A stretch of 63,997 nt of DNA, filler included, from Reclinomonas americana ATCC 50394 (taxonomy: Eukaryota), in the NCBI GenBank assembly GCA_048213135.1. It is 7 parts of 5 records of this genome, joined end to end, with 100 filler letters (N's around TTAATTAATTAA, not from the genome) between each part and the next. Parts side by side here need not be neighbours in the genome. Positions count along the whole stretch, not along the records: positions 1 to 12,841 come from PS015060.1; positions 12,942 to 18,208 come from PS015060.1; positions 18,309 to 47,305 come from PS015061.1; positions 47,406 to 56,530 come from PS015062.1; positions 56,631 to 60,800 come from PS015062.1; positions 60,901 to 62,641 come from PS015064.1; 1 more part is not named here. The stretch is one strand, 5' to 3'. The notes under the pieces are model-generated. The model was not told where the DNA came from and searched no databases. It saw nothing but the letters and a program-made list of their open reading frames with translations. Below, piece after piece: positions 677-62,641 of this stretch. Positions within the stretch are counted from its first letter, which is position 1. Each line of letters starts with the position of its first letter. Made by a program: the position numbers and the translations under genes.

Positions 677-3600
677 ATGAAGAAGAAGAAGGTTGGAAAG
701 GAGCGCTTGGACAAGTTACGTGACTACTGAACGCAGCATGAGATAGCCACACAAGTTCTTTCTCTGCGTGTATTGTGTGCGATTTTTTGTGTGTGTGCCG
801 AGTCTGTGCATGTGAATGTGCACATGGCGGGCACACTCACTCTTGCTGCGCTCGCACAGGTTCTATCACTTGGCCAAGGAGCAAGGATATCGGTGAGCAT
901 AGCCTCCTGTCTGTGTGCGTGTGTGTGTGTGTCTCTCTCACTCTCTCTTTTGGTGGCATGCAGCTCGCGTGCTGCGTTCAAGCTGGTGCAGCTCAACAAG
1001 CGATTCGACGTGCTGAGCTCGGCTCGTGTCGTCGTCGATCTGTGTGCGGCGCCCGGAGGTGAACAGACACGCACTGACTCACAAGGGCACACGATTCTGC
1101 GCATATTTGACACTTTCTCTGAAGATCGCTCGCTTGCACACTCTTCTGCACACGAGTACGCATAGCTGGGCACGCCTACACTCTCTTCCACGCAGTCGCA
1201 CTCACTTTTGCACACTTTCGCACACTTTCCCCACACTTTCCGCATTTCCACACTGTTCTTCACAAACACAGACTTTCACGCCCTTCTGCACACTCTCTTG
1301 CACTCGTCTACACATAGCTGGGCACGCTTACACTCTCTTCCACGTAGTTGCACTCACTTTTGCACACTTTCGCACACCTTTTGCACTCATTTCCACAAAA
1401 TTTCCGCACTCTCTGAAGTCACTCGCCTGCACACTCTCCTGCATGCTGCTGTGCACTGGTCCACACACCTAGGGACACCTTTACACTCTTCCACACCTAC
1501 GCACTCACTTCCGCACACTTTTGCACACTTTTCCCACACTTTCCGCTCAGTCACACTGTTCTTCACAAACACGCACTTGCTCACTCTTCTGCACACTCTC
1601 TTGCACTCTTCTACGCATAGCTGGGCACGCCTACGCTCTCTTCCACATAGTTGCACTCACTTTTGCACACTTTCGCACACCTTGTGCACTCATTTCCACG
1701 CAATTTCCGCACTCTGAAGATCACTCACTTGCACACTCTTCTGTATGCTGCTGTGCACTGGTCCACACGCCTAGGGGCACCTTTACACTCTTTCACACCT
1801 ACGCACTCACCACTGCACACTTTCGTACTCTTTTCCCACACTTTTCCGCTCAGTCCACACTGTTCTTCACAAACACGCACTTGCTCACTCTTCTGCACAC
1901 TCTCTTGCACTCTTCTACGCATAGCTGGGCACGCTTACACTCTCTTCCACGCAGTTGCACTCACTTTTGCACACCTTTTGCACACCTTGTACTCATTTCC
2001 ACACACTTTTCCGCACTCTCTGAAGATCACTCGCTTGCACACTCTCCTGCATGCTGCTGTGCACTGGTCCACACACCTAGGGACATCTGTACTCTCTTCC
2101 ACACCTACGCACTCACCTCTGCACACTTTCGCACACTTTCTCCACACTTTCCGCTCAGTCCACGCTGTTCTTCACAGACGCGCACTTGCTCACTCTTCTG
2201 CGCCCCGCCACGCTTAGTAGGGCACGCATACAATCTCTTCCACGCATATGCACTCACTTCTGCACACTTTTGCGCATTTTTCCCCACACTTTCCGCTCAG
2301 TCCACACTGTTCTTCACAAACACGCACTTGCTCACTCTTCTGCACAACAGCTGCACTCACTTCTTCACACTTTTCCGCACATTTCCCGTGTTCTTCACAA
2401 ACGCAGACTTCCACGCACTGCAGTGTTCTTTTGCACACGCCAGGGCACACCTGCACTTCTTTGCATACTTTCCCGCTTATTTCCCCACAAACGCACACTT
2501 TCCACAATCGATTACAGTCCTTTCTCCTCTCCTCGTTCACTCCTTCTCTTCCTCTTGTTTCTGCTTCGTTTGCTGACTTGCCATTTGTGTTCCGTGCGCA
2601 GGATGGTTCGCATTACCCCGCTCTCGCCGATGCCTCCTCACTTCCCTCTAACCCACTCTCTCTCACGCGTAGGATGCAAGTGTGCTCCAAGTTCTGCCCG
2701 GTCTCCAGCAAGATTGTCGGCATTGATCTCGATCCGATCCGTCCAGTTGAGCAGCGCACTCTTCTCTCCTTTCTCCAATCTCTCTTGCTCATTCCATGCA
2801 ACAGGTCCGCAACTGCACGAGTCTTGTGGAGGACATCACGACGCAAAAGTGTCGCCAGGCGCTGAAGAAGGAGCTGAATGGGATGCCAGTGGATGTGTTG
2901 CGTAAGGGGGCCAGGAAAGCTTCTGGGTTCTGCCTTGAGTCTCTCCTCTTCAAACATATTTTGCAGTGACTGCCCGTCGGTATTGCCCGTACCTTCTCGC
3001 AAGCTCGTTGCTTGTGCCACCGAGCTATACTCTTGCATTCTCTGTGTCTCCACATTTATCGCTTTCGTCTCCCTTTCCGTTTTCCTGTCCCTCTCATCTC
3101 CTCCCCTTCAACTCACACACTCGCATGTCCTTTTCCCTTCCGCGTGCCCGTCTTCATGTGGTCTGTGTGGTTTCTCTGCAATGTCTTACTCACAATTCAC
3201 CACTCTCACGCGTGTGTTCGCACTTGCTCACGTTTATGTTGCATTTCTTGTTGCTCTTTCCTCAACCCCCTTCCTCTCCTCCAAGCGCTCGCGCGCACAG
3301 AGTTGAGCAACTCTGTGCGCTGTCTCTTTTCGTCCGTCTCTCCCTTTCGCGTGCACTGTCTTCATGTGTTTCGCTGCAGAATTTCTTTGCAACTCACCAC
3401 CCTCAGGCCTCCAAGCACTCGCACGCACAGAGGTGCTCAGTGCGCTGTCTCCCTTCGTCTGTCTCTCCCTTTCACATGCACTGCCTTTGTAGTCACTGCA
3501 TTGTCTGTTATTTGTTGCAATTCCCCACTCTCAGACGTGCGTTCGCACTTGCGCATGTTCATGTTGCGTTCTTGTCGCTCTTCCTCCCTCCCCTACATTC

Positions 3601-13662: not shown

Positions 13663-16600
13663 TTACTCATACAAAGTGCTAGTAAAGTCAGGCAAGATCG
13701 AACCACAGATACGCTCAAGCACCTCTACATCCTGCTGTTTGCGACGCACGTAAATCGACTTGCCGAATATTCGAATGGAGAGATTGGCTGTGACGACGGC
13801 ATCACGGGACATGCCGACAAGGTCGGCTTCTGTGCCAAGTCGCACTTCTTCCCCACGCGCAAGCGACCACACTCGCACTGTCCTGTCACGACTCCAGGTT
13901 ATAATGTGCAGCCCATCGGGAGCGACGGCGACAGACCTCACTCGTCCGAAGTGTCCCACCAGCCGTCGCAATTCTTCTCCGCTGGCCAGCGACCACACGC
14001 GCACTGACTCATCTGCACCCCCACTTACGATGTGCTGACCGTCGGGTGTAATGGCTACGGAGAAAACCTCTCCAGCGTGTCCCACCAGCCGGCGCAACTC
14101 CTCTCCGCTCGCCAGTGACCACACGCGGACGGTCTTATCGTCACTACCACTAACTATATGCTGGCCATCCCGAGTGATGACAACTGCCTTCACTGCTCCT
14201 GCATGTCCATCCATTCGTCGCTCTTGCTCTCCACTCAACAGCGACCACACTCGAACAGTTTCGTCAGCACTTCCACTCACAACGTACTGACCATCGGGAG
14301 TGACGGCAACACACCACACAGCATTACTATGCCCGTCCAACCGTAGCATTTCTTCTCCACTCACCAAATCCCATATTCGCACTGTCGTTTCCCAGCTCCC
14401 ACTCACAATTTGTTGATTATCCGGAGTGATGGCAACGCAGAGCACAGCGCGCGAGTGTCCTCCCAGTCGTCGTACGCCTTCCTTGTCCACCAGTGACCAC
14501 ACCCGCACCGTCTCGTCTCTGCCCCCGCTCACAACGTGTTGACTGTCAACACTGACGGCGATACACCGCACCCTTCTGGCGTGGCCTTCCAACCGTCGCG
14601 CCTCTTTACCGCTCGACAGGGACCACACACGCACTGAACCACTCGAATCTCCACTTACAATGTAGCGACCATCTGGAGTGAGCGCGACAGCGAGCACCGC
14701 ACCATCAAGCCCGTTCAACCGTCTCACTTCTTCTCCGCTCGCCTCAGACCACACACGCACTGTCCGATCAGCACCTCCACTTACAAAGTGCTGACCGTCG
14801 TACGTGACGGCAACAGAGTCAACCCCTTCCGTGTGTCCCTCAAATCGTCGCACTTCATCTCCAGTCATAAGCGACCACATACGCATGGACTTGTCAGCAC
14901 TCCCACTAACAATGTGACGACCATCGGGAGTGACGGCAACAGACCACACAACTTCGGTGTGCCCCTCCAACCGTCGCACCTCCTCGCCACACGCCAGTGA
15001 CCAAACACGCACCGTGCAGTCGTGGCTGCCACTCACCACATACTGACCATCGGAAGTGACAGCGACCGACCACACAGCCTTGGTGTGCCCAGTCAACTGC
15101 CGCACTTCCTCTCCACTCGCCAGTGACCACACACGCACAGTCATGTCGGAACTTCCACTAACAACGTGCTGACCATCAGGAGTGATGGCGACAGATTTCA
15201 CCTCCCCAACGTGTCCCTCCAACCGACGCACTTCTTCTCTATTCGCCAGTGTCCATACTCGTATCGTGCGATCATGGCTTCCACTCACAATGTGCTGGCC
15301 ATCGGGAGTGACGGCGACAGACCTCACATCATCAGTATGGCCAACCATCGGCTTCCTCGGCCACTTCACACCAGTCACATCCGCCCCTCTAAAATCCGCC
15401 TCCCTCGCATACGCCATGCACACATTCACCTCTCGCAGATCCGCTCCCCTCCACACCGTCCGGTGCATCACCGCATCCCTCAAATCCGCACCCCTCACTC
15501 GCACACCCGACAGATCTCGTCCACTGAACGACACTTGTGCCACACACAACACCGTCGCTGCATTCGCTGCGGCCGTCACCACTCTCTCTTCATCCACCTC
15601 CTTCGACAACTCAATCACCTCCCACAGTCTCGCTTGCAATCGAGGAGATCGTCGCACCACCTCGGCCATCTGATCCACCAACGATGGTCGATCATTCAGC
15701 AGGCGCACTGCCAGTACATGCTGCTGCACATCCTGCACCGTCAACGTCCTCTCCTCATCCCACGTCTCCCATGCGAACACATGCCGTGCCACACAGTGCT
15801 CCAGCAACGACAGATGCACGAATCCCCACTGCGTCGTCCCATACCGTCGTACAATCGGGCAGCACGCACGCACATGCTGGTTCCTGGAGCCGAGGAACCT
15901 ATCAAACGGTCCCTCTTCCATCCGTCGTCGATGGTCGAGTGGCGCACCGCCAAACTCAGAGATGTCTTCATCGAACGCTCGCTCCTCTGACATCGCTCGC
16001 ACGACATTCCTCTCATGCATCAACCGTGCCAGTCCCTCACAGAACGAGAGACACACCTCCGCACTCGGCAGACGTGTCGCACCGAGACGCGTCTGCCTCC
16101 CTTGCTCCCTCACAATCCACTGTCGAATGAATCGGTCAAACACATCACGCCGCGTCGGCCGCTCCATCACACCACTTGCCACCAACTGCGGCAACACACG
16201 AGCCACCACTGCCAACAGGAATGGATTCGACACCAGCACATCCAGTCCATGCACACTCTTCAGTGCACGAATGTACTCCTCCGCAGTCGGCCATCGCACT
16301 TCTTCGTCGTCGTCATTCTCACCATAATCCACGTGCACTTCAACCAGTCGCGCAAAGTACTCCTCAATTTGCTCCTTGTTGAATGGCGCAATGTGTCGCT
16401 CCATCGGCTGTTGCGTGCACAACTGTCCACATGCATCTACTGGTGCAAAGTAATGTCGATACTGCGTTACACCACCCAGCGCCGTCAGTGCGTAATCGCT
16501 GCGACAGGTGATTATCACCTTCAAGTCGCGACACACGTCCAACTGGTTCTTGACAAACAGGTTCACACCACGGTACAACTCGTCGTACCCGTCAAGCAAC

Positions 16601-18163
16601 AACACCAGTGGTTCCTCCTTCAACCGTCGCACATCCGCCTCACTGAATCCCAGTTCGAGTGACAGTCGCACCAGTGCCTCCTCCAGCAGTCGCTCATCGG
16701 CATTGCGCAGAGCACCGAGAGGCACACGCACAGGCACTCGCCGACTCTCTCTCGCGTGCCACTGTCGCCATGCTCGCTCAGCCAGCACCGACATGGTGGT
16801 AGTCTTGCCAGCTCCACTGTTGCCAAACAGCACCAACACGCGATGCGAGGTGTTGGTGTCGGAGAGGAAAGCATCCACCTCCGTCAGCAGATTCATCATC
16901 CTGTCTCTCGACGAGACGTCACGCTCACGGGAGCACAGAAGTGGCACATACATCTGCATATCCTTGCGCACACCCTCGTCATGCTGATAGAAGAAAAGCT
17001 CACGCACGGCCAGACGATGCAGTCGTTCTTCAAAGGTGCTCATACTGAAGTCGAGGTGACGCGCCTCACGAATGCGTGCCGCGAAACCGTCAAATGTATC
17101 ACCAGGTAGGTGCAGTCCGGAGAGGACGGAGAAGTAGGCACCAGCATCATCAAGATACTCGTGCACACTTGCCTCGGTCCACGCCTGCGACGCGTGCGCC
17201 AACTCATTGCGCACCACTCGCAGCTGATCCAGCGCCTTGCGTTCATCAACATCGTCAATCAGCAGCTGCTGCTGGCCAGATTCTTCAACAAAGACACCAT
17301 ACAGCAGGATGGAGGCGAGCGCCGTCGTGTCGAAACCGTCACACGGAGGGTCGGATGAGGGGTCGGTGTCAAATGCAGCGCGCCAGGCCAATACGTGTGG
17401 ATGCAGTTTTTCATACAATATGACGCGCCTCTTCGGTACCGGCATATGCCGATCACGCCACGCCTTCACTGCCGCCGCATCCATTCCAGCAGGTGCGAAA
17501 CTTGGCACCCATGCCCGCAAATCAAAGTCGGGATGATCACGACTGAACTGCGCCAGTGCGCGTTGACATCGCATACGCAGCGCATCGACTACCACCTCGA
17601 AGGCCACAGTAATGCGGTTCGAGTTAATCATGCTGCACAATGCAAACATAATCAGCACAGACTCACTCCAGGAGAAGAATGAACAAGAGAGGGATGAGGA
17701 TGACTAAGGCAAGCAAAACAAACCGAGTCACTCGCTCCGAGTTGCTGGGCGAGGACATGAGAGTGAGTTGCATGTTACAGAGATGAATCACACACACATA
17801 CCTTCCACTCTCACTTCCACTCGACTGCAGCGCCACGCCAAGTGTCAGACGGACGACGATATGAGTGGATGAGATGACGCCGAGTGCAGCAAGTGGCACG
17901 CCGGCAGCAAGATTGATGTCGTATGGCGCAGGTTTCTCCACCCCCACTATCTCCATCTCCCCATCGCCACTCTTCTCACGCAACAAGCGTGCGGCCTCAC
18001 GCAGCAAGTCCGCGAGACTGGACATGGCCGACATGCCCTCCACCACCACCGACAGCGATGAATCATGCGCCGCACTTACATGCACAGAGAACTACTTGTG
18101 TGCAATGGTCAGCACAGGAGGAGCCCACACAAGCACACGCGAATTCACACGCACCGTTGACAT
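13663..18163 (-). CDS. NLR-like STAND protein: ubiquitin-like + HEPN + NACHT + pentapeptide repeats + 12 WD40 repeats
   Basis: Exons are 18163-18155 (MST), 18091-17802 (UBL-like), 17744-17724 and a ~3.97-kb exon 17632-13663. Motifs: FDTTALASIL..LRVVRNELAH (Rx4H), Walker A GNSGAGKTT, Walker B LLLDGYDEL, VIITCR, NPFLL, FVHLSLLEH, AAANAATVL followed by GADL pentapeptides, then twelve 42-aa GH..VRVWSL repeats. Confidence 0.9.
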
Positions 18164-18352
18164 TGTGTGTGCTCTCCCGAAGCAAGCCACAGATTGATGT
18201 CCCCCTGANNNNNNNNNNNNNNNNNNNNNNNNNNNNNNNNNNNNNNNNNNNNTTAATTAATTAANNNNNNNNNNNNNNNNNNNNNNNNNNNNNNNNNNNN
18301 NNNNNNNNCCCCCCTGCCTGTCCCCATCCCGTCTTCCTACGTATTCTGCGCC

Positions 18353-19730: not shown

Positions 19731-22700
19731 TCACAACGGACGATACCCAGCATTCTCGCCACCACTTACTCTAAACGCGGTGGCCGACGTCGGCGTCGTT
19801 CCCGGCGTTATCGTATCGGTGGACTTGTACGAGCGGCCACCCGGCGACACAATCGGCATGGCCGCCGAGTCGCGCATGCGACGCGTGCTCATCGAAATCG
19901 GCAGGGCGGCCGCGGCCTCCGGATCCAGCTCCGCGGTGCGGCCCACGCCGTCGGTGCCCGGCAGGCCCGGCAGCACGTAAATCGGCGCCGACTCCATCAT
20001 GGCCACGGCGTCTTGTTCGAAGAGGTTGCCCGAGGCGTAGGGTTGCCATGGGTAGGCGTACTGGAAAAGGGAGAGTATGAGGAGAAGGAGGGAGGGAGGA
20101 GAAGGAGGTAGGGAGGAGAAGGCGGAGGGAGAAGACGCAGAGTAGGAGGGGCGACTTGTCCAACATCTGAAACCAATGACTGAACCCACGAAGTGGGTTG
20201 ATTTCTTCTTGCTCCCTCTTTTCCTCAGTCCATCTGTCTCTTCGTCTGCCGGTCTCTGCACACGTAGTCTATCTGTCTATCCCGTTCTATCATTCGCGTT
20301 CTCTCTTTTTATGAGCAACGGCTGCCAGACTGTCTGCATACCTGCTCGCTTGAAATCGTGTCCCTCAATCTTACTTCTCACAGTCCACGTGCCTCTCCTT
20401 GTGTTTCTCTCTCGGAAGCGCACACCTTCCTGCTTGAGTGTACACATTTTCTCTCTGTCTTTCTTCACTTCACACACAGAGCCACTTAATTTAAAACGCG
20501 AAGACAATCAAATCACTTCCAGCGCAGTTGGCTCTCTCTTGCTGTCTGCATGTCTGCTTAATCGGCTGTCTGCATGCTCTCATTTTCCGTTCTATCATTC
20601 TCTCCTTCTCCCTTCCTCCCCCCACTCCCTTCTCCTTTCCCCTTTCCCCCTCCCCCACGCACCAAATGCAACACCGCCACCAGCGCCATCTCAATCACAA
20701 TAATAATATTGTTGATGCTCTCGGCCTCGTCCGACTGCGCCCAATTATCCGGGTACGGCGGCGCGGCGCCCACATACACCAGTAATCTGACCAGCAGCTT
20801 TTGCCTGGGTCACCCGTCAGCACCCCACATCTCCTCTTTTGAGGAGGGGCAAGCGAACGCAACATGAATGTCACCCCAATCAGGAACTGAATGCTAAGCA
20901 GCTTGGTCGCCGGCTGGAACTGGGCCTTTTTCAAATCTATTCCGCAGATTAGAAAGGACGACAAATCTGAGGACTCGCCAGCTCAGCACTCACCAGGATT
21001 GAGAAACCGCACGAGCCCAAAGAGATACAAAACGCACACAGTGGTGCTGACGCCAATGATAATAAAGATCCACATGAAGGGCGACTCGGGCTTGAAGATG
21101 CCGTACAGGTAAAAGTGCAACGCAAAGGCGATGCACGCAAAAACACGGCACAATGGTTTGATGATGGCTGCCACGTCGGTGAGAAGCAAGGGCAATGCAC
21201 AAGTAGCTGGCAAGTCGCCACGCACCGAATTGCCAAGTGGCGAAGCGGGCCTTTTCATAGAACTTGACGTCTACCCTGCTCCGACAGCAAACTGCGGCCA
21301 ACGGAGTCAGTGAGGAGCGAGAGGAGAAGAAAGAGAGTCTCAATCAACGCAACAAATGGTAAAGACACTGCGTGGTGGTCGATCTCGGATCTTTTCGTGC
21401 ACCAGATGCCAGCCGCCGATGCGATCGATGATAAGCCAGAAGAAGCAGAACACGACCCAGGCTGCGTGGTCGAGTGAGGCAAGGTAGGATTGGGAGAAGC
21501 AGAAAGGAGTCGAGTACCTTGATACGTGTCGCGAACCAACTCAATGTATACCAGTTGGTTTTGGAAGGCCGTGGCGAGCCAGGCGGTCACGGCGTATACA
21601 CTAGCAGGGGGAAGGGGAAGGGGGGGGGGTAAGGCGGAGGGGGAAGGAGATGAGCGAGAAGAAAGAGGATGAGCAGAAACTACAAAGGGTGAGCAGCGAG
21701 AGGGAGAGAGAATACGAGACGAGGACGTGCGGGCACTGGCCTCATTCTGTGTATTTCACGACGGACGCTGTCTGCTCACTGTGCTCCCCTCTTTCCATAC
21801 CGACACTCTCTGCAGAGAGAGAGGGAGGAGAGGAGGAGAGGACGAGGAGAGGAGGAGGGAGAGGACGAGTAGTAGGTACGGAAGGAGGACGGGTTACGAA
21901 GAGGAGAAGGNNNNNNNNNNNNNNNNNNNNNNNNNNNNNNNNNNNNNNNNNNNNNNNNNNNNNNNNNNNNNNNNNNNNNNNNNNNNNNNNNNNNNNNNNN
22001 NNNNNNNNNNNNTACGCGTCGTCGACGTCGTCGTACGTCGTCGTACGGCGTACGGTACGAGGAGGAGGAGGAGGAGGAGGAGGAGGAGGAGGAGGAGGAG
22101 GGGAAGGGCAGAGAGAGGAGAGAGTGACTAATGAGGCAGATCTTGCAAAAGGTGAGCAGCAAGAGTGAGAGAATACGAGACAAGGACGCGTACGCACAGG
22201 CCTTCCTCAACATCACACGCGCAGCTCTCCGTCTGTGTCATTCATCGCTGTCTGCTCACTGTGCTCCCCTCTTTCTGGTACGGGCACTTTCTGCAGAGAC
22301 AGAGAGGGGAAGGGGGAGAAAGAGAATAGTAACACGACAGCCGTGAAATGCAACTATAGTTCAATGATTCAAGGAGGACAGACAAGCAAGCAGCAGCGTA
22401 GGAGAGCGAGACATCATTTGCTGAGCAGAAGAGAGTCACGGGAGGCGCAAGGGAGGCAGCAACAAGTCATGACGAACGACTCGGCGAAGGAAATGAACTG
22501 ACAGAGAGGAAACGTGAGCCAGACGGATGTCAAGAGAGAGAGGGCGAGATGGAGAGTGAGGGAATTGACAGAGAGGAAAGAGAGAGGGGAGGAGGAGAGA
22601 GACGACAGAGAGGTAGAGAGAGACAGAGAAACGCGTTTTTGACAAGTGAGAAATGCATTGACTCCTGTCAGAGAGAGAGAGGGTGAGAGAGCATACAAAG

Positions 22701-23001: not shown

Positions 23002-23287
23002 GGTGAGAGAGAGAGGCCTCACTCTGTGTCTGAGTGTGTGTGTGTGTGTTTCACGCAACGGAGCAAACAATATAATAACTAATGTTGGTCTTTGCAGCAG
23101 TGGAGTGCTCCAGTTCATCAAGTGTCGCACCACAGAGTACATTGTGATGGCCAGAGTCACTGTATATGTGTGTGTGAGTGAGTGAGTGAAACAAGAGAGA
23201 GTGAGTGGAGACACAAAGAGAAAGAGATTCGAAACGTAATGCAAATGAGCCCGTGACCCACAGCACATCCTTGCGCATGGTCACCAT
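19731..23287 (-). CDS. TMEM184/organic solute transporter alpha (Solute_trans_a) family membrane protein
   Basis: The spliced product reads MVTMRKDVLWVTGSFALLTLAITMYSVVRHLMNWSTPLLQRPTLVIILFAPVYAVTAW..IELVRDTYQAWVVFCFFWLI..WQFAIIKPL..KLLSIQFLIGVTFMQ..NNIIIVIEMALVAVLHLYAYPWQPY, which matches the family motifs. Confidence 0.88.
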
Positions 23288-24388: not shown

Positions 24389-25531
24389 TCAATGCGACAA
24401 GCTCCACAACGTCGTCGGCGAGTGATACGAGCGGAACGGCGACGGCGTAATCAACGACGTCGCACTCGCAATGCACGCCCAGCTCGGCGTCGTCGGCGTG
24501 CGCGGATCAAACGCAGACGCATCCGCCACCGCCAACGTCGGCGTCAGCAGCTTATTGCAGCCCCACGTCGACCGTCCCGCCGGCAATGGCGGGTGCATGG
24601 CCGTCACTGTCGGTGCAGTCGCTGTGGTCGCAGCTGTCGTGCTCGTTGTCGTTGATGCAGGTGGCGTCACCGACACGGTAACCTTGCCCTGCTCCTCATC
24701 AAAGTACGCCGACACCGCCTCGTCCTCCGTCTCCGAATCATCCGCGCTCTCGCCACTCTCCTCCGCCTCCTCCTCCAACGCCGTCACCGTCAACGTCGCC
24801 GTTGGTGTTGGTCTGCTCTCCGACGTCGAAGTCGTGGTCGTAGAAGTCGCCACGGCAGCCGCTGCAGCTGCCGTCTGCGCCCATCCCAGCATAGCCGCGG
24901 CCGCGAGCGACGGATTCGCGCCCTGCAGCACCTGCTGATGCATCGCCGCCATTTGCGCCATGTGCGCGAAGTTGAGCGCGCTAAACGCCGCCGGCGGGGC
25001 AGCCGCCGTCGCCGCGCTCGCGGCCGTTGCCGGCTGCGCAGTGACGCGTCCGAGAATGCGTTGCCGGCACGTGCGGTAGTCCTGCGAGGCCTCGTCGGCG
25101 TAGGACTCGGGAATGGTGCCGCGTCCGCGCGCGGCCGGCTTGTCGAGATCGAGGAGCTTGACGTCGGGAGAGGTGAACTCGGCGAGCAGCTTGAACATGT
25201 CCGTGGAGGAGTACTTGTACAGCTTGCCGTTGGAGCTCTTCACAAAGAGCAGCACGTCGGCGTCGCACATCTCAGTGATCTCAATCTGCACGCAAGAGAG
25301 AGGAAGGCAGTCAGCACAAGCAAAGAGGAGTGCGCACATTGTTGAGGAGACGACTCAACTGCCTTCTTGTGCAGGCCCATCTTGCGCTTCTTGAATCTGC
25401 GTGGCACAAAGAAGAGTGAGCGCCATGGCCCATTTTCCTCTCACACACACAAAGAGACACACACACCGTTGGCGCAAACGCTCTCGCTCGGCCTTCTCAT
25501 CGACCGACATGGCAACACGTTGACGCGGCAT
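24389..25531 (-). CDS. Divergent MEF2-like MADS-box transcription factor (3 exons)
   Basis: The spliced N-terminus is MPRQRVAMSVDEKAERERLRQRFKKRKMGLHKKAIEITEMCDADVLLFVKSSNGKLYKYSSTDMFKLLAEF, followed by an Ala/Thr/Pro-rich tail. Confidence 0.85.
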
Positions 25532-26166: not shown

Positions 26167-27029
26167 CTACTACTACTACTCGTCTCGTACGTACGTACGT
26201 ACGTACGTACGTCGTCTCGCTACGCGTCGTACGTACGTCGACNNNNNNNNNNNNNNNNNNNNNNNNNNNNNNNNNNNNNNNNNNNNNNNNNNNNNNNNNN
26301 NNNNNNNNNNNNNNNNNNNNNNNNNNNNNNNNNNNNNNNNNNNNNNNNNNNNNNNNNNNNNNNNNNNNNNNNNNNNNNNNNNNNNNNNNNNNNNNNNNNN
26401 NNNNNNNNNNNNNNNNNNNNNNNNNNNNNNNNNNNNNNNNNNNNNNNNNNNNNNNNNNNNNNNNNNNNNNNNNNNNNNNNNNNNNNNNNNNNNNNNNNNN
26501 NNNNNNNNNNNNNNNNNNNNNNNNNNNNNNNNNNNNNNNNNNNNNNNNNNNNNNNNNNNNNNNNNNNNNNNNNNNNNNNNNNNNNNNNNNNNNNNNNNNN
26601 NNNNNNNNNNNNNNNNNNNNNNNNNNNNNNNNNNNNNNNNNNNNNNNNNNNNNNNNNNNNNNNNNNNNNNNNNNNNNNNNNNNNNNNNNNNNNNNNNNNN
26701 NNNNNNNNNNNNNNNNNNNNNNNNNNNNNNNNNNNNNNNNNNNNNNNNNNNNNNNNNNNNNNNNNNNNNNNNNNNNNNNNNNNNNNNNNNNNNNNNNNNN
26801 NNNNNNNNNNNNNNNNNNNNNNNNNNNNNNNNNNNNNNNNNNNNNNNNNNNNNNNNNNNNNNNNNNNNNNNNNNNNNNNNNNNNNNNNNNNNNNNNNNNN
26901 TCGTCGTCTTCGTAGCGTACTCCTCTCGTCCCACCCTTCGGTTCGATCTGCTGTACCGTACCGATCGCCTTCGGTCCGGTACCAGCAGTGTCGTCACTGC
27001 AACGACGAACCTTACCTACTTGTGTAGCG

Positions 27030-27843: not shown

Positions 27844-30800
27844 ATGAGTGATGGTGAGAAGATTTCGCTTCTTGCGACGAGTAGCGTGAACAATGGTGTT
27901 TCTGGGGAGGAGGTGGTGACTGTGAGGAAAGTGAAGGGGTGAGTGGAGGGGATGAGGGAGAAGAGGGGAGTTGTCTCAGAAGGGAGGGAGAGAGGGGTGA
28001 GTGAGAGAGAGCGAGAGAGAGAGAGAGAGAGAGAGAAGGAGGGGAGGGAGAGGGAGAGAGAGAGAGAAGGAACGGGGAAGAAGAGAACAGATGCGTCTCG
28101 GAGTTGTTTGCATTCATGCAGAGAGACCTTCCTTGCAGATAGTCTCTCTCACCCTCTTACAGAGAGAACACTCATGGCTTGCTCGTTGCAGACACGACTG
28201 CACTCGTGCACAGACAGCCTCTCCTCGACCGGAGCTTCCTCATTGGAGTCTCACTCTCCCTCTCTGTCTCTCTTTCTCGGAGAGGGAACTCATGGCTTGT
28301 ACGTGGCAGTCTGTCTGAGAGAAAGTCACCTTCTTCCGCTCTCAGAGATCTGCATTGATGCCGAGACTGTCTCCTCTCCCTCTTTCTCTCACAAAGATCA
28401 CTCAAGATTCGTCGTTGCTGTCGCGTATTCGTGCACGAGGCAGTCACAGTTCTTCACTCTCGCGCAGAGGAGGTCATTCTGGGCTTGTTCCTTGTCACAC
28501 GGAGCGGTCACTCAGGCTTGTTCGTTGCATTCCGTCTGCACTGGTGCACCGAGCAGTCTGAATCCTTCATTCTCTCTTCCTATGCCCCCAATCCCTATCC
28601 ATTGCAGATCCTGTAGATGCTCAACACACTCCGTCTCCTTCGCTTTCTCTTTCCCCTCACAGAAATCCTTGCTTATTGCTCGTGTCTGTAGCTACTCCTG
28701 TCCTCCCACCTTGGTCATCTACTCACCCTTCCCTTCCCTCCTCTCCAGCCGCATCGCCATCCTCGTCGTCCTCAGCGTGCTATCGCTGGCCGAGTGGTTC
28801 TGTTGCGTCTTCTCCCAACATCACCTCCACCCTCCTCCCCCACCTAACTCTTTAACGACACACAGCCTACCTGCTCGCCAGTCCCTTCCTCCCGTCGTAC
28901 TCGCTCAACCTCCACTGCTCCTACTTGCAAGTTTCGTCGACAGTCTCTCCCCGCCCTTCTCCATTTACTCACCCACCACAGGTGGGCATCATCAACGCGA
29001 CCACGGCCTTTGTGTCATTACTCGTGACGCCACTGGTGGGATGGATGCTGAGCAAGCCGGATAAGGAGCGCATGCTGCTGTGCGTGGGGGCGGCGCTGGA
29101 GGTGAGTGGAAAGACGCAAGGCGCGCACTCGTGTGACAACTCCCGCTCATTGCGCCCTCGGCAGGTGGTCGCCTATGGCGCGTACTCGTTCCTCGGCTTT
29201 GTGCATTACCCGACCGCCTTCTTCTGCCTCTGCGTAATGCTGCAGGCAGTTGCGTGAGCGGGGAAGGGGAGGAGGAGGGGTGGCGAGGGAACGTGGGGAT
29301 TGTCGATCTCTATTTTGTACGCGTCAATCTCTCACGCGTCGCTTGTCGATTTCTCTCGCTGTGCTCGTCCATCTCTCGTTGTGCTTGACGATCTCTCTCT
29401 TTGTGTTTGTCAATCCCTCTTGCGTTGCTTGTCGATCTCTCTCATTGTGCTTGTCAATCTCTCTAGTTGTGTTCGATCTCTCGCTGTGCTCGTCAATCTC
29501 TCTCGCTGTGCTTGTCGATCTCTCTCTCATTGTGCTTGTTGATCTCTTTCGCTGTTCTGTCAATCTCTCTCGCTGTTCTCTCAATCTCTCTCGCTGTTCT
29601 CTCAATCTCTCTCGCTGTTCTCTCAATCTCTCGCTGTTCTCTCAATTTCTCTCGCTGTGCTTGACGATCTCTCTCGCGTTGGCTGTCGATCTCTATCGCT
29701 GTCTCTGTCAGTCTCTCTCGCCGTGCTTTTCAACATCTCTCTCACGTTGCTTGTCGAACTCTCTCACTCTCTCTCTCTCATTGTGCTGTCGATCTCTCTC
29801 GCTGTGCTTGTCATTCTCTCTCTCCTTGTGGTTGCCAATCTCTCTCGCTGTACTTTCCATTTTCTCCTGTTGCGCTTGTCGATTTCACTCGCTCGTCGTC
29901 TCTCCCGCCGTGCTCGTCTGTCTCTTGCTCTCTTGCTGTCTTGTTAGTTCTCTCTCACTTTCCCTCTCTCCCTCTCTCTCACTCTCCCTCTCTCCCTCTC
30001 TCTCCCTTTGCCTGACTCCCCAGATCATCGGCGTCGGCCTGAGCACCACCGGCACCACCGCCCTCGTCATGGTCACGCAATACTGGCCCGACCGCCCGGG
30101 ATTCGCGCGCGGTGTGGTCGAAATGTGGATTGGCGTGGGCGTCACGTTTGGGCCGGTGCGTTTGCTTCAAATCTCCATCTTCTCTCATCCTCCTCCTCAC
30201 TTTTCACCCACGCAGACGCTCGGCGGAGCACTCTTCGCCGCAGGTCAGTCTCCTGCTCATCTTACCCCCTGTCATGCGCACGCTCACGCCATTCTCTCGC
30301 AGGCGGATTCTCACTGCCCTTCATCGTCCAAGCCTCGATGATGGCCGGCATCCTTATCATCCTCTGGCTGGTGCTCTCTCGCACACCGCGACCACCACCT
30401 CTCGGTGCGGCGCCAGTCGCCAGGGAAATGTCGGTCAACAGTTCCGAACCTGGCGACACCACGACGCCAGGCGACCAGCCAGCTGTAGAGGACGAGCCGA
30501 CGGTGTGGCGCATGATTTGGAGCTGGCGGTGGGTCATTCCGGCCAACCTGTCGGTGTTTATCGCGACGAGCATGTGGTGCGTGCGTCTCCTTGCCACAGT
30601 CGATGCTCGTGTCTCGTCTCACACACTCGCCAACAGGGGCGTCATGGGAGCCACTCTCGGTTTGCGTTGGTCGACGGTTGCTTGAGTGTCGCAGTTGCTT
30701 ACTAGTCTCACAGAGCCTGAGCTCACCGGCCCGTACCATTTCACGAATCTGCAAGTCGGCCTCCTGTACGGCTTGTCGGCGCTAGCGTTGCGTAATAATG

Positions 30801-35455: not shown

Positions 35456-35490
<35 letters not shown>

Positions 35491-37741: not shown

Positions 37742-45406
<7,665 letters not shown>

Positions 45407-52185: not shown

Positions 52186-53038
52186 GCTGATCACACCGAA
52201 TGTGCTGACTGAGCCGCTCTGCAACGAACCCACCGTCGTCACACTACCGCCGCTGATCACACCGAATGTGCTGACCGAGCTGCCCTGCAACGAACCTACC
52301 GTCGTCACACTGCCGCCACTGATCACACCGAATGTGCTGACCGAGCCGCTCTGCAATGTGCCCACTGTGGTCACACTGCCGCCGCTGATGACGCCGAATG
52401 TGCTGACTGAGCCGCTCTGTAATGAGCCCACCGTCGTCACACTGCCGCCGCTGATCACACCGAAAGTGCTGACTGAGCCACTCTCAAGTGTACCCACCGT
52501 CGTCACACTGCCGCCGCTAACCACACCGAATGTGCTAACTGAGCCGCTCTGCAGTGTGCCCACAGTCGTCACACTGCCACCGCTGATCACACCGAATGTG
52601 CTGACTGAGCTGCCCTGCAACGAACCCACCGTCGTCACACTGCCGCCGCTAACCACACCGAATGTGCTGACTGAGCCACTCTGCAACGAACCCACCGTCG
52701 TCACACTGCCGCCGCTAACCACACCAAATGTGCTAACTGAGCTGCTCTGCAGTGTGCCCACTGTCGTCACACTGCCGCCGCTAACCACACCAAATGTGCT
52801 AACTGAGCTGCTCTGCAGTGTGCCCACTGTCGTCACACTGCCGCCGCTGATCACACCGAATGTGCTGACCGAGCCACTCTGCAGTGTGCCCACCGTCGTC
52901 ACACTGCCACCGCTGATCACACCGAATGTGCTGACTGAGCTGCCCTGCAACGAACCCACCGTCGTCACACTGCCGCCGCTAACCACACCGAATGTGCTGA
53001 CTGAGCTGCTCTGCAGCGTGCCCACCGTCGTCACACTA
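52186..53038 (-). repeat. Coding 66-nt (22-aa) tandem array SVTTVG[TS]LQS[GS]SVSTFGV[IV]SGG, about 13 units visible
   Basis: The cacaccgaatgtgct motif recurs every 66 nt. Much of the variation falls at minus-frame third positions. Gaps bound the array on both sides. Confidence 0.9.
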
Positions 53039-56000
53039 NNNNNNNNNNNNNNNNNNNNNNNNNNNNNNNNNNNNNNNNNNNNNNNNNNNNNNNNNNNNNN
53101 NNNNNNNNNNNNTAGCGTAGTTGTCGACGTGTGTCCAAGCACAACGGTGCCCGACGACAAACTCAATACCGAGACGCCAGCGACAGAAGCGCTGACACTG
53201 GTCGTGCCGACGATTTGCACTTGCGGACCAGACAGCTGCAGGCTTGTTCCCGATCCCGTGCCGCCAAGCAGCACAGCAACATCGCCCAGTGTGGCATCGC
53301 GCCGCCGGAGAGCGATTTGCTGTCCAACAGTATCCACAAAGAGCTGGCTGAACTGCGTCGCCGAAGTCTTAGCGGTGACTGAAACAGTGGAAGTCGATTG
53401 GATACTGGCATCCACGGCTAACAGCGTCAACAGCGTCACACCGGCGGTGCCATCAGCAGATACGGATAAGCTGTTGGTCGCCAGCAACTGCACGTCGCGA
53501 ACAGAAGACTGCAGTGACCATTGTCCAGCGCTGAGGGCCACCGCAAATGCCGCAGAATTGTCAGGTTTAAGCACAGAGAACGACTGTACGTGATACACAA
53601 AACAGGTGGAAGTGTGAGGCACACTTCACGCAAAACATATACACATTGGCAAACGTACCGAGCCGGCGGTGGAGACCGCATTCGTCGACGACCCAAGGAC
53701 GACACTCGGGGCCGTCAGGGTAACCGACGTGCTGCCGGTGACCGCAACTGCACCGGCCAACAAGCCAACCTATAGCACGACAGCCAATTCACGATTGAGA
53801 AAGATTGTGAAAAGATATAGATTCCACGATTGCCACGCACCTGCGGAGTGGCGTTGCCCACTGCACCGATGAAAACATTGCCATTCACACCAATACCATT
53901 TCCGCGACCACCTTGAATCCGAATAGACCCGCCGTTAGTGTCGACGGTCGCTCGGTTGCTTCGACTGAGCACAAATTCGTCGTTGGCGTCAGGTCCCAGA
54001 ATGAGTGTGCTCCCACTCGACAACAGCACGCGTGATGCGGATGTCAAGACCAGATTGCCCGAGATCTGTACGCGTGCATATGCAAGGTTAGCACGTCGCC
54101 AGAACAACAAGTCAGTAGACGCTCACGAGGCACGCAGGACCTGCGTGGTTGCCGACGAAATTGTGGTCGTTGAAGTGGAGGTGCCGATGTTGACGGCAAG
54201 TGCGTTTGTGACGCCAACTTGCACCGCTCCGGCAGTGCCAGCTCCTTTACCGGCGTCGAGATACCTAAGATGCAGAGGCATCTGAGTGCATGAATAAATT
54301 CGGAACACGGGAAGGAATTCGATCACGCAACAGCGAGCCGGCTTGGAAGCTTGCATCCGCATCTTGACCTGTAATGTACATGGCGCCGGCCGTGGCCATT
54401 GTGCGACGCGGCCGCGTGATAGTATAATCACCAGTGTCACTTGCCGTGCCAAACAGGAGCAGGCCTGTTGACGGTATCAACACGAGGTCAGCCGCCGTGG
54501 TACGGATGATGCTTGGCACGATCAGATCACTTGTCAGCGTCAGGGATGAATTGATCGTGAGCTGCAGAAGGCGAGGAAAGTCAGGAGCTATACACACATG
54601 CATACACACACAACACAAATGCGCACCGCTCCATAAATCGTTACTGGAGTTGAGGCACTTCCAATGTCCACACGGCCGGTCGAGACATTGGTGCCGACTT
54701 TGACGGCGGTGGAAGCGTCGAGCAAAACATTGACAGCTTGAGTAGACACCGCAGCCGTGGCTGCCGAGCCAAGCACAACATTTCCCGAGACCGCATTCGT
54801 TCCCGTGCCTGCGGAGGCCGCAAGCCGAATGCTGCCACCCAGAGCATTGGCACCGGAAGAGGCAGGTCGTGTGATCACATACTCGAGACCGTCCGCAGGT
54901 CCAACAAAGATGCTGGAAGCAAATGGGAGCAGTGCTGCTGTGGCAGTGGAGAACTGAAGAGAGCTTGACACCTGCGGCGGCGGCAGACATGTCATCAAAC
55001 TCGACGACGAAGAAAAACTGGCTTGCGCACAAGAGGCATTTTGTGACGACGTACCGCAGCAGAACCCACGGTCAGCGGACTCACAACATTGACTCCACTC
55101 GTTGAAGCTGAGCCCAGTACAACGGCACCGTGCGCGGTGGTTCCCGAGCCACCACTCAGCACTCTGCACAAGTCCACCAAGCGTCAATGACAGCGATAGA
55201 TAACCATTGATGCTTTAGCAAACGCAACAGGTCTCCGCCAGTTCCGGCGGCGATCGACTGGCCAGCAATTGTTGTGGTCGTAGCGACCATTCCCGCGCCG
55301 CTATAGGTTGGGCGGCCAAGCGTGAAGGCTGCGGTGCCGTTGCCGAGATCGACTCTGGAGGTGACCGAATCCAGCTGCAAGTTGCCGGGGGAGCCCATCA
55401 GCCCTCCGATTTGCAACACGCCGGTGACCGACACCTGCGTGAGTTGATAAGGCAGCAAGAACACACAAGCAGCGCAAGCAGCCCGCTTACCGTGCCGAGT
55501 AGCGTCAAGGTGCCTCCCATGCGACCGAGAGTGGTCGACGTGGCCGTGGCACCCATCGTGAGGGTACCAGAAGAGTCCACAGAAGTCGACGTCTGCGACC
55601 GCAGAATCAACTGCGACCAGAGGATGGGTGAGTTAGTGTCACAAGAAACTCCCGCGGCGAAGGCGAAGCACAGTACCTGCGCCGTATCCGTGGAACTGCC
55701 GATGAAAATCCGTCCATTGGTGGCGGTTCCCTTGCCCGCCAGGATCACCGTGTCGGCACCAACTACGCCAGCCGCCACCGCATTGGGGCGGCGAATGGTA
55801 AACGTCGTCTGCGAGAGATCACCAAGCACCAGTTCGGAAGTCGCCGATATGATGCCGTTGTCAAAGTTGCAAGACACGGCACAGGAGATGGCCGCGCCGG
55901 CAACCGTCGCCGTACCCTGAATAAGGAGATTGCCCTTGACAGTGAGATTGCTGCCGGTGCGGCCGATAGAGGTTTCGCCGTGAATCTCTGTGGTGCCAGC

Positions 56001-56530
56001 GTCGTTGCCCACAATCGTCTGCAGCACGGGGTCAATAATTATCAGAAGCGTTCCACAGAAGAAGCACGACAGCCTGCCGAACCTTGGATGCATTCGCCGC
56101 ACCGAGACTCGCCACACCAGCAATACTCATTCCGGCACCAGCGTCAATGATACTAACAAAGAGCCGCCGCAACAGTGAAAAATGAGTAATCGTCGACACA
56201 AGGCCTGCTGCGGCGATTGGGAACGCAACATGTTGCCGCCAGTGGAATCCAGACTGCGCTGGCCAAGGATGGAGATGTCGACGGCAGCTGAGCCATCTGC
56301 GCGGTCACCCTTGGTGACGGTGAACGGCGCGGTGCGGGAGCCCAGGTAGAGAGTCGATGAAGCTGAATCAAGCGACAGGGTACTGCTGCTGCTAATCACA
56401 CTTCCGCCCACGGACAGCTGGCCAGAAACCTGGAGAGGCGAGTAAATACACCAGTGTCCCCGTGATAAACGAGGACCCACGCACCGTGACGGCTTGCCCA
56501 CCGCCTGGAGCAATGACGATTGGTTCGGCG
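52186..56530 (-). CDS. Internal part of a large Gly/Ser/Thr/Val-rich fibre-like beta-repeat protein (multi-exon)
   Basis: Spliced modules such as F/Y.I.RP....TI.GQ...GG[DNS][LI].L.AG.G...G.V.[LI]G repeat about six times and lead into a 22-aa tandem array. Introns are GT-AG and the frame is continuous. Confidence 0.75.
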
Positions 56531-56715
56531 NNNNNNNNNNNNNNNNNNNNNNNNNNNNNNNNNNNNNNNNNNNNTTAATTAATTAANNNNNNNNNNNNNN
56601 NNNNNNNNNNNNNNNNNNNNNNNNNNNNNNACGTACGTACGTACGTACGTACGTACGTACGTACGTACGTACGTACGTACGTACGTACGTACTACTACGT
56701 ACTACTACTACTCTA

Positions 56716-56845
<130 letters not shown>

Positions 56846-56906
56846 CTTCCCTCCCTCCGCTCTCTCCCTCCCTCCCTTCTCTCTCCCCCACACATCATCG
56901 ACTTAC

Positions 56907-60184: not shown

Positions 60185-60711
60185 TTAGTCGCACTCCTCG
60201 GTGATCTTGAACTTCGGGTGCTTCGGAATTGCCCCTGTGTGACAAAAAGTGAGCAAAAAACCCCTCTCCCTTTCCCTCCCTCCAAGTCACGCAACAGTGG
60301 CAAAACTCGTCAAACAGAATGACGCCACCACCGTCGGCGTCGATCTTGCGGAAGGTGCGCTCAGGGTCCTTGACCTCGAGGCCCCACTCCTGCAGCAGCG
60401 GCACGGCGGCGATGAACTCGCGCAGGCCAATGCGGCGATCGTTGCTGGTGTCGATCTTGAGGAAGAGCTGGTACAGCTCAAAGTACCGCTTCAGGTAGAT
60501 GAGCAGGTGGCGGAACTCGGCGCGCTGCACGTAGTCGTCGCCAGCCGCCGACTTGCCGTGGTACTTGGCCTTGGCGGCGTTAAAGGCGCGCATAATGACC
60601 GGCTTGCAGTCAAAGATCTCGTGCAGCTGCAGCACCTCCAGCAGGCCGCGGTCGACCTCGGCCAGGGAGAGCAGGCCGTTGCCGTTCGGGTCGAACGAGT
60701 CGAACATGATG
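60185..60711 (-). CDS. Flagellar calcium-binding protein (calflagin/FCaBP-like EF-hand), 3' part
   Basis: MFDSFDPNGNGLLSLAEVDRGL..KPVIMRAFNAAK..DDYVQRAEFRHLLIYLKRYFELYQLFLKIDTSNDRRI..FRKIDADGGGVILFDEFCH|WAI. The T|GTTGCG intron restores the conserved F..WA. Confidence 0.9.
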
Positions 60712-60900: not shown

Positions 60901-62641
60901 CCGGGAACGAATCGGGTGTCCAGTTCGCCCCTGTGTGGAGCTTGTGCGGTAAGTGTTTTTTTTTTATATATTTCCCCGATGTGTTTCAAATGCACAATCT
61001 GCGTCTCGTTCTCTCTCTCTTGCAATCGCAGCCTGGCTACTCGCACTGGCAAGGCGAGTGCGTGAATTGCCCGTATACTGTGGCGCGTGCCCGTCTCTCC
61101 ACCGTGTTGAAGATGTGGCTGGTGGTGCTTGTCACACTTGTGCTGTGTCAACGTGAATCCAGCGGTGGTTGCGTCTGATCGTGCCCCGCACGTTGCAACT
61201 GCATCATTGCCGCTTACCGTATGTTGTTGTTGCGTGATGCAGCGGGCGTGGAAATCATTATTTTCACGGCACAGACAGCGGCGCTCTTGTTCTACCCTGA
61301 TCTGACGCTGCTGACCCTCAGCCGACTCCTCTCGTTTATCACCCCACAATTCCTCAACGTCGATCCCGCGTGCCCGTTGATGTTGAATGCTCTTGGTGAC
61401 ACGTTGGTGCAAGTGATCTCTCCACTTGTGTGTCTCGGCTTGCTGTGGGGCACGTTTGGCTTGCATCTGGTGCTGGCGAAACTCGTCGGTCGCCGCGAAC
61501 CCAGCGAGGAGGCTGTTGGTGGTCAACAACAACGATGCTGTCTCAAGCTCCGCCAGCGCTGGTTAGCCATCGCACGATGGCTGCACAGGACGGCCGTCTC
61601 TAGTCGTTACGTGCGAGCGACCATGGTTATTCTGGTCGGTGCCTATGCCGGATTGGCGCAATTGTCGGTGTCATTTTTCACGTGCACGAAAGTTGGACAA
61701 GCGCACGTGGTACTATTTTCTCCAAGCATCGTGTGCTTTGAGGGAGAGTTGCGCGGCGTGAACAGAGCGTGAGTTTCTGTCTTCCGCAAATACAGCTGAA
61801 CGTGTGACGATTGTGACAGGTGGCGGACGCTAGCGCCTGCCTTTGGTGTGCTGTCGGCGCTCATTGTCCTGGCGCCAATTATGTTGGTCTTGTGGACGTT
61901 GCGGATGCGACGCAGAGACAAGCTTCAAAGCGTCAAGGTGAAGCTGCTCCATCTCCGTGCTCGTGAGTTGCAAGCGCTGATTCGCGATGCAGATGAGGAT
62001 GCGCTTTGGTGTGCTCTATCACCATTTCAGGCCTCAGTTCGTGTGGTATCAGGGTGAGTAGCGTGCTCGCGACAACGCAGCGTGTACGCGAACTCACAAA
62101 AAAGTGTCCAATTGCGCAGGGTACCAACTCACTCGGCGTCTCATACTGGTGGCCGTGATGTTCCCACTGGCGGCCCTCGGCAAGCTCACTGCTTTGCCGC
62201 TCGCACTGTGGCTAGTGTGTGCCTGCTTCCTGGTGGTCCACGTGAGTGTCCGGGCGTACAATCTGGATGCAGATAACAAGCTGGAGGTATGCAGGGAGAA
62301 GGTTGCAGTGTCGACAAGTATCGTTGTCTCACTACTCACTGCGTGCCTACAGACCATCAGCCTGTGCGGCCTCGTGAGCATTTCCACCATCTTTGCCTCG
62401 CAAGTCGCCGCACCGTACAAGATCACTTTTGGTCTCACGCTGCTGGGCATTCTCGGCATCCTCCTCTTGATCCCGTTCGTGACGCGGGCACTGCAAGGCG
62501 TCGTGGGCACGATTCGCGAACGATCGCGAGCCCGCAAGAAGCGGATGCTGTATCAAGTCAGTGTGAAGGCAGCAGAGTTCACCGCCGACCACGAAAGCAC
62601 AGGTGCAGTGGTATTGCCGTGGGAGGATGCTGCATTGCAGC
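60901..62641 (+). CDS. C-terminal part of a Cys-rich-ectodomain, multi-pass (about 7 TM) membrane protein
   Basis: The spliced product reads PLCGACAPGYSHWQGECVNC..FFTCTKV..SPSIVCFEGEW..RFGVLYHHFRPQFVWYQGYQLTRRLILV..VRAY..DNKLE, a pattern common in protist receptor-like 7TM proteins. Confidence 0.7.

Follow-up and report, generated by a model that had tools for sequence, protein, structure and literature searches.

Donors (5' splice sites) that are read in other than the canonical register of U1 small nuclear RNA (snRNA) have been described in human cells; by the account given in PMC4856993, all validated non-canonical registers together make up 1.5% of human 5' splice sites, and predicted sites with a bulge at +2/+3 amount to 68 among 201,541. 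Donors have also been divided by the share that their exonic and intronic parts contribute: as far as the description of two-class or seesaw sites in PMC11732430 goes, AG//GUNNN sites are set against NN//GURAG sites, and the G at -1 and the G at +5 are anti-correlated within one register. In the literature searched, neither a GTTGCG or GUUGCG donor class nor non-canonical registers outside mammals or in protists were found. Here, we describe the donors in a 63,997-nt stretch of the Reclinomonas americana ATCC 50394 genome (GenBank assembly GCA_048213135.1), referred to as the window throughout, which consists of seven pieces joined through N44-TTAATTAATTAA-N44 linkers and contains additional internal N gaps. 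Most introns modelled in the window begin with a canonical donor, G/GTNNGT, or with a second form that carries an extra T, H/GTTNNGT (the GTT class), where the slash marks the exon-intron boundary and H is A, C or T.

The initial annotation of this DNA had listed 32 donors of the GTT class and had claimed that they follow exons that do not end in G. All 33 positions (the 32 donors and an alternative at 4485) bear the hexamer assigned to them on the assigned strand, the preceding exon base is always A, C or T (G in 0 of 33), and the sites are spread over five pieces of the window, as had been reported. GTTGCG accounts for 24 of the 32 sites, and the minority forms GTTGAG, GTTACG and GTTTCG have canonical counterparts in GTGAG, GTACG and GTTCG. 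The anatomy of the two classes was compared in 24 supported GTT-class and 31 canonical introns. In the former, +3 is T in 24 (by definition), +4 is G in 21, +5 is C in 22, +6 is G in 24 and +7 is T in 18; in the latter, -1 is G in 30, +3 is a purine, +4 is A, C or T, +5 is G in 31 and +6 is T in 20. Both classes match a seven-base frame, G-N-T-N-N-G-T, in which the first GT marks the cut, and the displaced geometry of a shifted register (/GUU followed by the consensus one base later) is present in the GTT class. The alignment originally suggested, in which the +1 G of H/GTTNNGT is set against the exonic -1 G of G/GTNNGT, holds, and the description of two classes is borne out by +6 G (24/24) and +7 T (18/24), which mirror canonical +5 G (31/31) and +6 T (20/31).

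The existence of the class was assessed statistically with a gene finder based on a hidden Markov model (HMM) that was self-trained on the window only. Its first version used a flat donor model, in which any GT counts equally; in the second, the donor model was trained on +3 to +7 and was blind to exon bases. For the counts, the GTT class was defined as GTTNHG and the canonical class as GTNNG. Under the flat model GTTGCG showed the highest enrichment among donor hexamers (8 of 64 introns vs. 0.44 expected, p = 1.6e-8). The trained model predicted 84 introns, comprising 44 with GTNNG, 23 with GTT-class and 17 with other donors, and 55 of these 84 donors match G/GTNNG or H/GTTNHG, compared with 9.3% of all GT sites. 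A G at -1 was found in 32/44 GTNNG donors but in 0/23 GTT-class donors with the trained model (Fisher p = 1.6e-9), in 21/31 vs. 0/11 with the flat model (Fisher p = 1.6e-4), and in 12/13 vs. 0/8 at homology-anchored junctions (p = 4.4e-5). The association of the -1 base with donor class, on which the earlier claim hinged, was therefore upheld in both the HMM and the homology counts. At GTTNHG sites that are not donors, -1 is G in 17.3%, so the absence of G from all 32 claimed sites also lies under background (p = 0.002). The GTT class makes up 11/64 introns in the flat and 23/84 in the trained model, about 17-27% of those modelled by the HMM.

Homology anchors were obtained in the gene for the Spb1/FTSJ3 ribosomal RNA (rRNA) methyltransferase (Table 1). 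The exon up to 2745 aligns as far as residue 82 of human FTSJ3 and the exon from 2805 begins at residue 83, while the exons ending at 2896 and starting at 3819 join without a gap against FTSJ3 112-119; the donors 2746 and 2897 are thus fixed to the residue. The join 714/860 gives the N-terminus expected from the Spb1 family consensus. If left unspliced, 4488-4553 (66 nt, in frame and stop-free) would lengthen the protein by about 18-22 residues that three Spb1 structures do not have; donor 4485 is an equally in-frame alternative to 4488. Splicing out 6408-6464 yields EREMEAM/YEDY, which matches the LERELDAMYEHY stretch of Chaetomium Spb1. The 4943 donor probably opens a 65-nt intron (4943-5007), after which comes an exon that the HMM skipped. 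For the canonical class in the same gene, the Spb1_C profile is matched up to position 129 before the 8137 donor and is taken up again, likewise at 129, from nucleotide 9546.

Several further observations were made in this gene. Two acceptors 7 nt apart lie at 6457 and 6464, and the conserved frame is kept only by 6464; the 6408 donor was missed by the HMM. Both 6408-6464 and 4488-4553 are stop-free and a multiple of three in length, so that finding based on open reading frames (ORFs) reads both as coding. At 2602-2605 (+), a 4-nt micro-exon, GATG, is located between ...gtgcgcag/ and /GTTCGC and restores the conserved G-W between DLCAAPG and MQVCSKF of the Spb1 methyltransferase motif. It is the sole match to the required pattern within a 1.6-kb intron, and it is followed by an intron of 67 nt. 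With the micro-exon there is no need for a non-canonical junction to join exons 1 and 2 of Spb1, a reading that was considered and rejected.

In the CaMK-like kinase gene, the exons follow one another along the Pkinase profile (10-32, a 20-residue exon, 59-92, 95-125, 126-163 and 166-188). The exon at 39430 opens exactly at Pkinase position 59, and its first residue, N, aligns with the N of RSK2 and CaMKI. This continuity, together with the conserved N, supports the donors 37974 and 38095. At 41070, Pkinase continuity overrides the T/GTTTCT donor that the HMM had placed at 41076. The one clear exception noted initially, the canonical form T/GTGCGT after a non-G base at 41214, was confirmed, and no in-phase consensus alternative to this donor was found. 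In the MADS-box gene, the exon downstream of the 25359 donor gave a weak SRF-TF match, and the junction ...HKKA/IEITEMCDA keeps the spacing of the MADS-box consensus. A further profile boundary coincides with a GTT-class site in the SPRY domain, where the match breaks off at position 74/121, at the exon end at 44314.

Overall, 26 of the 32 introns first listed are supported or plausible, 5 are uncertain and 1 is rejected. The donors 715, 2746, 2897, 4488, 6408, 37974, 38095 and 25359 are the eight anchored by homology; the HMM recovered 19 of the 32, namely four of these eight and 15 others; and three (55228, 56229 and 21353) are plausible from signals alone. The rejected site is 42805, which lacks a usable acceptor: the only nearby AG is 23 nt off, and good coding sequence runs on in the same frame. 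Of the 32 claimed donors, 13 were missed by the HMM, and lowering its intron penalty did not recover them. HMM boundaries were corrected from homology or in-phase alternatives at 915 (to 893), 41076 (to 41070), 4774 (to 4789), 37797 (to 37795), 30160 (to 30155, plus 30243) and 30581 (probably to 30660). Several apparent canonical donors after non-G bases proved to be HMM errors in which an in-phase G/GTNNG donor suits the protein better, and true exceptions of this kind therefore seem few.

It is very improbable that the class is an artefact of in silico modelling, of a chance hexamer or of related introners that carry a GTTGCG end, given the junctions that agree to the residue with solved structures of FTSJ3/Spb1 and with coordinates of Pfam profiles. 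Several HMM boundaries were mis-set, one claimed site was wrong and five are uncertain, and the word GTTGCG occurs 53 times on both strands against 43.5 +/- 6.5 in shuffles, without overall enrichment; at intron boundaries, by contrast, it is strongly enriched even under the flat donor model. An introner family was examined by all-against-all blastn of the 24 and 31 introns; all matches, which occurred in both classes, were short, CT-rich and of low complexity and lay away from the 5' ends, and there is no conservation past +7. A GC donor three bases downstream (GTT/GCG) was rejected because it would add a residue without a counterpart in the FTSJ3 alignments. A one-base slide of both junctions (TT...AGN) was likewise rejected, since it gives inconsistent end dinucleotides and would replace the conserved N that starts the 39430 exon.

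Apart from their donors, the two classes resemble each other. Median intron length is 65 nt in the GTT class and 73 nt in the canonical class, and both have a branch-like YTNAY motif, a YAG acceptor in which -3 is C, and a similar body composition. Introns of the major spliceosome were recognized by GT...YAG ends, YTNAY 7-26 nt before the 3' end and a pyrimidine-rich 3' part. The curated GTT-class introns agree with this description: all 24 have GT and AG ends and 22 have a YTNAY motif. U12-type introns were ruled out, as none of four RTATCCT matches is at a modelled donor and the TCCTTAAC branch motif has 0 matches. As judged from genomic sequence, GTT-class introns are genuine, belong to the GT-AG type of the major spliceosome and start with a donor form of their own that is also common: H/GTTNNGT, mostly GTTGCGT. 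This second form is used where the coding sequence leaves a non-G last exon base. Phases 0/1/2 are 10/3/12 in the GTT class and 15/10/6 in the canonical class, a weak difference (p = 0.045) in the direction expected if the coding-constrained -1 base sets the donor form.

The reading that we favor, with a probability of about one half, is that the two classes are recognized through a shared frame, shifted by one base, for which either a helper or a U1 5' end that is non-canonical or additional would be required. Both donor forms would present the frame G-N-U-N-N-G-U to the reader, its first G being exonic in G/GUNNGU and the intron's own +1 G in /GUUNNGU. The donor-reading element, most likely the U1 snRNA 5' end, would bind one base upstream relative to the cut, the extra U would stand in for the U normally at +2, and the cut would then be set at the first GU by later U5/U6 steps. 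The +1-shifted register would thereby be in routine, not rare, use. As one-base indels at +3 would be free of coding cost, introns could drift between the forms; with the -1 base fixed, the form would come to match it, which would give rise to the either/or pattern.

The need for a changed reader was derived from pairing predictions. RNAduplex was run, with bulges allowed, on the canonical U1 5' end 11-mer as given in PMC4856993. The energies omit pseudouridine and the proteins of the small nuclear ribonucleoprotein, and the U1 modelled is the canonical one, which may not be that of this organism. Canonical donors were predicted to pair at -7.4 kcal/mol, with a median rank of 0.035 among random GT sites. 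For the GTT class, 79% of random GT sites pair at least as well, and the full shifted frame (+1 with C9, +3 with A7 and +6 with C4) is found in just 3/24 optimal duplexes. The idea that a shifted pairing of the mammalian type with the same U1 reads these donors was accordingly not supported, as canonical U1 is predicted to bind the GTT class no better than random sites. Because its binding to GUUGCGU is predicted to be poor, a helper factor or another U1 5' end, either non-canonical or additional, is probably present in the lineage. For a U1 5' end altered at positions 5 and 8, the energy predicted with the GTT class in the shifted frame was -8.5 kcal/mol, and the fit to canonical donors was poor. 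The proposal of altered U1/U6 or of a dedicated factor, also made in the initial annotation, would fit the modelling of U1 variants. In a more specific and rather doubtful form, a second U1 (or an altered 5' end, e.g., at positions 5 and 8) would read /GUUGCGU one base upstream, so that about a quarter of introns, those after exons unable to end in G, would be defined by a dedicated RNA and the later steps would be common to all.

Several points weigh against the shared shifted frame. The mean predicted energy of the GTT class with canonical U1 is only -0.87 kcal/mol (rank 0.79), and among U1 5' ends with up to two substitutions from canonical none suits both classes, the best worst-case median rank being 0.16. 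No snRNA gene was found in the window by Rfam. The inner dinucleotide is GC in 20/24 GTT-class and 6/31 canonical introns (p = 2.5e-6), and mere displacement of the same recognition would not lead one to expect this dominance of GCG. If base pairs are simply counted, H/GUNNGU retains the +1 G pair, and the advantage of the shifted form is not obvious. GTTGCG is left unspliced in sense-strand exons at 5 sites plus 42805 and is not an automatic donor. All junctions were deduced from genomic DNA alone; the curated intron sets were partly chosen by us and serve for description, not for the -1 statistic, and only the HMM and homology counts are independent of that choice.

In a bulged register, G+1 and U+2 would pair normally, the U at +3 (or +2) would be looped out and GCGU would pair as +3 to +6. 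Such a +2/+3 register, which on this reading would be in frequent use here, has been established experimentally in human cells according to PMC4856993, and it would keep the usual geometry of the cut site and the U6 contacts. Two possible donors with another extra base and a G at -1, G/GTGGCGT at 5086 (+) and G/GTCTTGC at 10470 (+), would, if real, point to a general tolerance of one extra nucleotide at +3; both, however, are unverified HMM or manual calls. RNAduplex, although free to bulge, predicted no binding of canonical U1. A bulge should also leave -1 G favored, yet the exon side contributes none (0/23 HMM donors and 0/32 claimed sites, vs. 17.3% at non-donor sites). As -1 G is absent rather than enriched, where a bulged pairing would still profit from it, the shift is favored and the bulge appears unlikely.

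It has also to be considered that GUUGCGU is read by a sequence-specific element, either a second snRNA variant in the canonical register or a protein, the shared frame being partly coincidental. The narrowness of the class argues for such a reader, both in the predominance of GTTGCG and in the inner GC, as do the failure of canonical U1 to bind in the predictions and the finding that only a doubly changed U1 5' end fits. On the other hand, the two classes do not differ in 3' signals or intron length, and the minority motifs, since they parallel the canonical ones, argue for a shifted version of the same recognition. We therefore regard a specific reader as improbable compared with the shared shifted frame.

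Table 1. Donors and repeat stretches in the window, with the gene, intron and support for each.
Feature	Position	Strand	Gene	Intron and support
GTT-class donor A/GTTACG	715..720	+	Spb1/FTSJ3	intron 715-859; gapless join 714/860
GTT-class donor A/GTTGAG	2746..2751	+	Spb1/FTSJ3	intron 2746-2804; flat HMM; FTSJ3 anchor
GTT-class donor T/GTTGCG	2897..2902	+	Spb1/FTSJ3	intron 2897-3818; flat HMM; FTSJ3 anchor
GTT-class donor T/GTTGCG	4488..4493	+	Spb1/FTSJ3	intron 4488-4553; HMM; homology
GTT-class donor T/GTTGCG	4943..4948	+	Spb1/FTSJ3	probably 4943-5007, 65 nt; HMM
GTT-class donor T/GTTGCG	6408..6413	+	Spb1/FTSJ3	intron 6408-6464, 57 nt; homology
GTT-class donor A/GTTGCG	11864..11869	+		75 nt; HMM
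GTT-class donor C/GTTGCG	11984..11989	+		67 nt; HMM
GTT-class donor T/GTTGCG	12090..12095	+		65 nt; HMM
GTT-class donor T/GTTGCG	28802..28807	+	transporter-like	64 nt; HMM
GTT-class donor A/GTTTCG	28931..28936	+		51 nt; HMM
GTT-class donor A/GTTGCG	29249..29254	+		775 nt; flat HMM
GTT-class donor C/GTTGCG	30787..30792	+		~555 nt; flat HMM
GTT-class donor A/GTTGCG	37974..37979	+	CaMK-like kinase	61 nt; preceding exon is Pkinase 10-32; frame checked
GTT-class donor A/GTTGCG	38095..38100	+	CaMK-like kinase	crosses N gap to acceptor 39429
GTT-class donor A/GTTGCG	42451..42456	+		60 nt; HMM
GTT-class donor C/GTTGCG	44314..44319	+	within SPRY domain	65 nt; flat HMM
GTT-class donor T/GTTGCG	20858..20863	-		59 nt; flat HMM
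Possible GTT-class donor T/GTTGCG	21348..21353	-		62 nt; strong acceptor 21292
GTT-class donor C/GTTGCG	23054..23059	-		enters N gap; HMM
GTT-class donor C/GTTTCG	23230..23235	-		76 nt; HMM
GTT-class donor A/GTTGAG	25354..25359	-	MADS-box	74 nt; HMM
GTT-class donor T/GTTGCG	54326..54331	-		67 nt; HMM
Probable GTT-class donor T/GTTGCG	55223..55228	-		65 nt, to 55164; phase and acceptor of the HMM's weaker GTTATC donor
Probable GTT-class donor T/GTTGCG	56224..56229	-		77 nt, to 56153; reading frame and acceptor list
GTT-class donor T/GTTGCG	60290..60295	-	EF-hand (FCaBP-like)	61 nt; flat HMM; Pfam EF-hand up to donor
Uncertain claimed donors	10553, 61748, 59076, 58988, 59381			low-complexity or poorly modelled genes
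Canonical donor G/GTGAGT	4067..4072	+	Spb1/FTSJ3	FtsJ profile ends at 176/181, two nt before donor
Canonical donor G/GTGAGT	8137..8142	+	Spb1/FTSJ3	1409 nt; Spb1_C anchor
Canonical donor G/GTCTGT	40864..40869	+	CaMK-like kinase	Pkinase 125/126 across junction
Canonical donor G/GTTTGT (T at +3)	41070..41075	+	CaMK-like kinase	Pkinase continuity, 163/164 to 166
Exception T/GTGCGT	41214..41219	+	CaMK-like kinase	59 nt, in kinase domain; HMM; exon is Pkinase 166-188
Tandem-repeat-filled long-intron stretches	1135-2346, 5409-5858, 8469-8786, 29323-29851, 39879-40549
ACG/CGT-rich repeat stretches	22013-22060, 26198-26242, 39191-39235, 56631-56700

The window has a GC content of about 55%, is dense in introns (mostly 50-80 nt) and has many microsatellites (CT, GA and AC) as well as longer tandem repeats. 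Pfam searches of the window identified the Spb1/FTSJ3 gene, two ORFs with WD40 repeats, an EF-hand (FCaBP-like) protein and a SPRY domain, and SRF-TF, TPX2 and organic-solute-transporter matches scored below the curated cut-off. The protein kinase domain was revealed by exon-level Pfam queries; exons of 20-30 residues embedded in long ORFs escape Pfam. RNA genes gave 0 matches over the whole window with Rfam at the gathering threshold and with ARAGORN. Searches of the PDB returned no match for the ORFs 6271-6963 and 37972-38127, and an Atlas search with the ORF 34949-37036 returned no usable match. The Spb1_C exon, searched likewise in the Atlas, yielded a weak lead, Chlorophyta being the most frequent phylum of the nearest cluster.

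Two WD40 ORFs stand out against the intron-dense remainder. An intronless ORF of about 1346 residues at 13663-17665 (-) contains a P-loop-like GNSGAGKT, what look like repeats of five residues, and WD40 repeats numbering at least 12, and a second WD40 ORF is present at 18309-19428 (+), on the piece that follows. The 5' part of the gene with GYPPQ repeats, at 10400-11600 (+), seemingly consists of very small P/Q-coding exons, such as the 9-nt CCTCCACAG at 10636-10644, which is followed by G/GTGCGT. The few long introns (0.6-1.6 kb) are packed with tandem arrays whose units measure 22-303 nt. Between two N gaps, 52186-53037 is taken up by 12.9 copies of a 66-nt tandem repeat (88% matches); both of its strands are open for 284 codons, and the HMM called the minus strand coding. 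Repeats rich in ACG/CGT (e.g., ACGT runs) lie beside several N gaps and at one piece start; they may be satellite or assembly artefact.

Non-canonical U1 registers are otherwise known, as far as PMC4856993 presents them, only as rare mammalian exceptions. If the shared shifted frame is correct, one such form would be used on a fifth to a quarter of introns and be strictly tied to the last exon base, and it would offer a natural experiment on cut-site choice independent of U1 position, on the weight of the -1 G contact and on the co-evolution of snRNA 5' ends and donor motifs. In practice, gene finders trained on only one donor model will put these junctions in the wrong place, as happened with the HMM here, and will take short in-frame introns for coding sequence.

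Compared with the known systems, the GTT class shares with U12-type introns a distinct, constrained donor motif in a minority of introns; it differs from them in lacking the RTATCCT and TCCTTAAC motifs and in having the 3' signals and lengths of the main class. As in the seesaw description of PMC11732430, donors are split by the contribution of -1 G, and the intron side compensates when the exon side fails. Within one register, however, -1 G and +5 G were not anti-correlated: the main class has both, whereas the GTT class has neither and carries G at +6 instead, and because it regains both Gs by moving the frame one base, it does not belong to the seesaw type as described there. With the +2/+3 bulge of PMC4856993 it has in common an extra U right after GU and a consensus that resumes one base later, but -1 G is absent where a bulge predicts that it helps, and its frequency is far higher than that of the human sites predicted in that source. 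The closest likeness is to the human +1-shifted register (Roca and Krainer; PMC4856993), as described in that source, in which the site likewise starts with GUU, the +1 G takes the place of the -1 G, the following bases are displaced and the cut is made at GU. The GTT class differs from it in its share of about a fifth to a quarter of the modelled introns, against 1.5% for all human non-canonical registers in PMC4856993, in its preference for GUUGCGU, which canonical U1 is predicted to leave unbound, and in its mutual exclusion with a G at -1.

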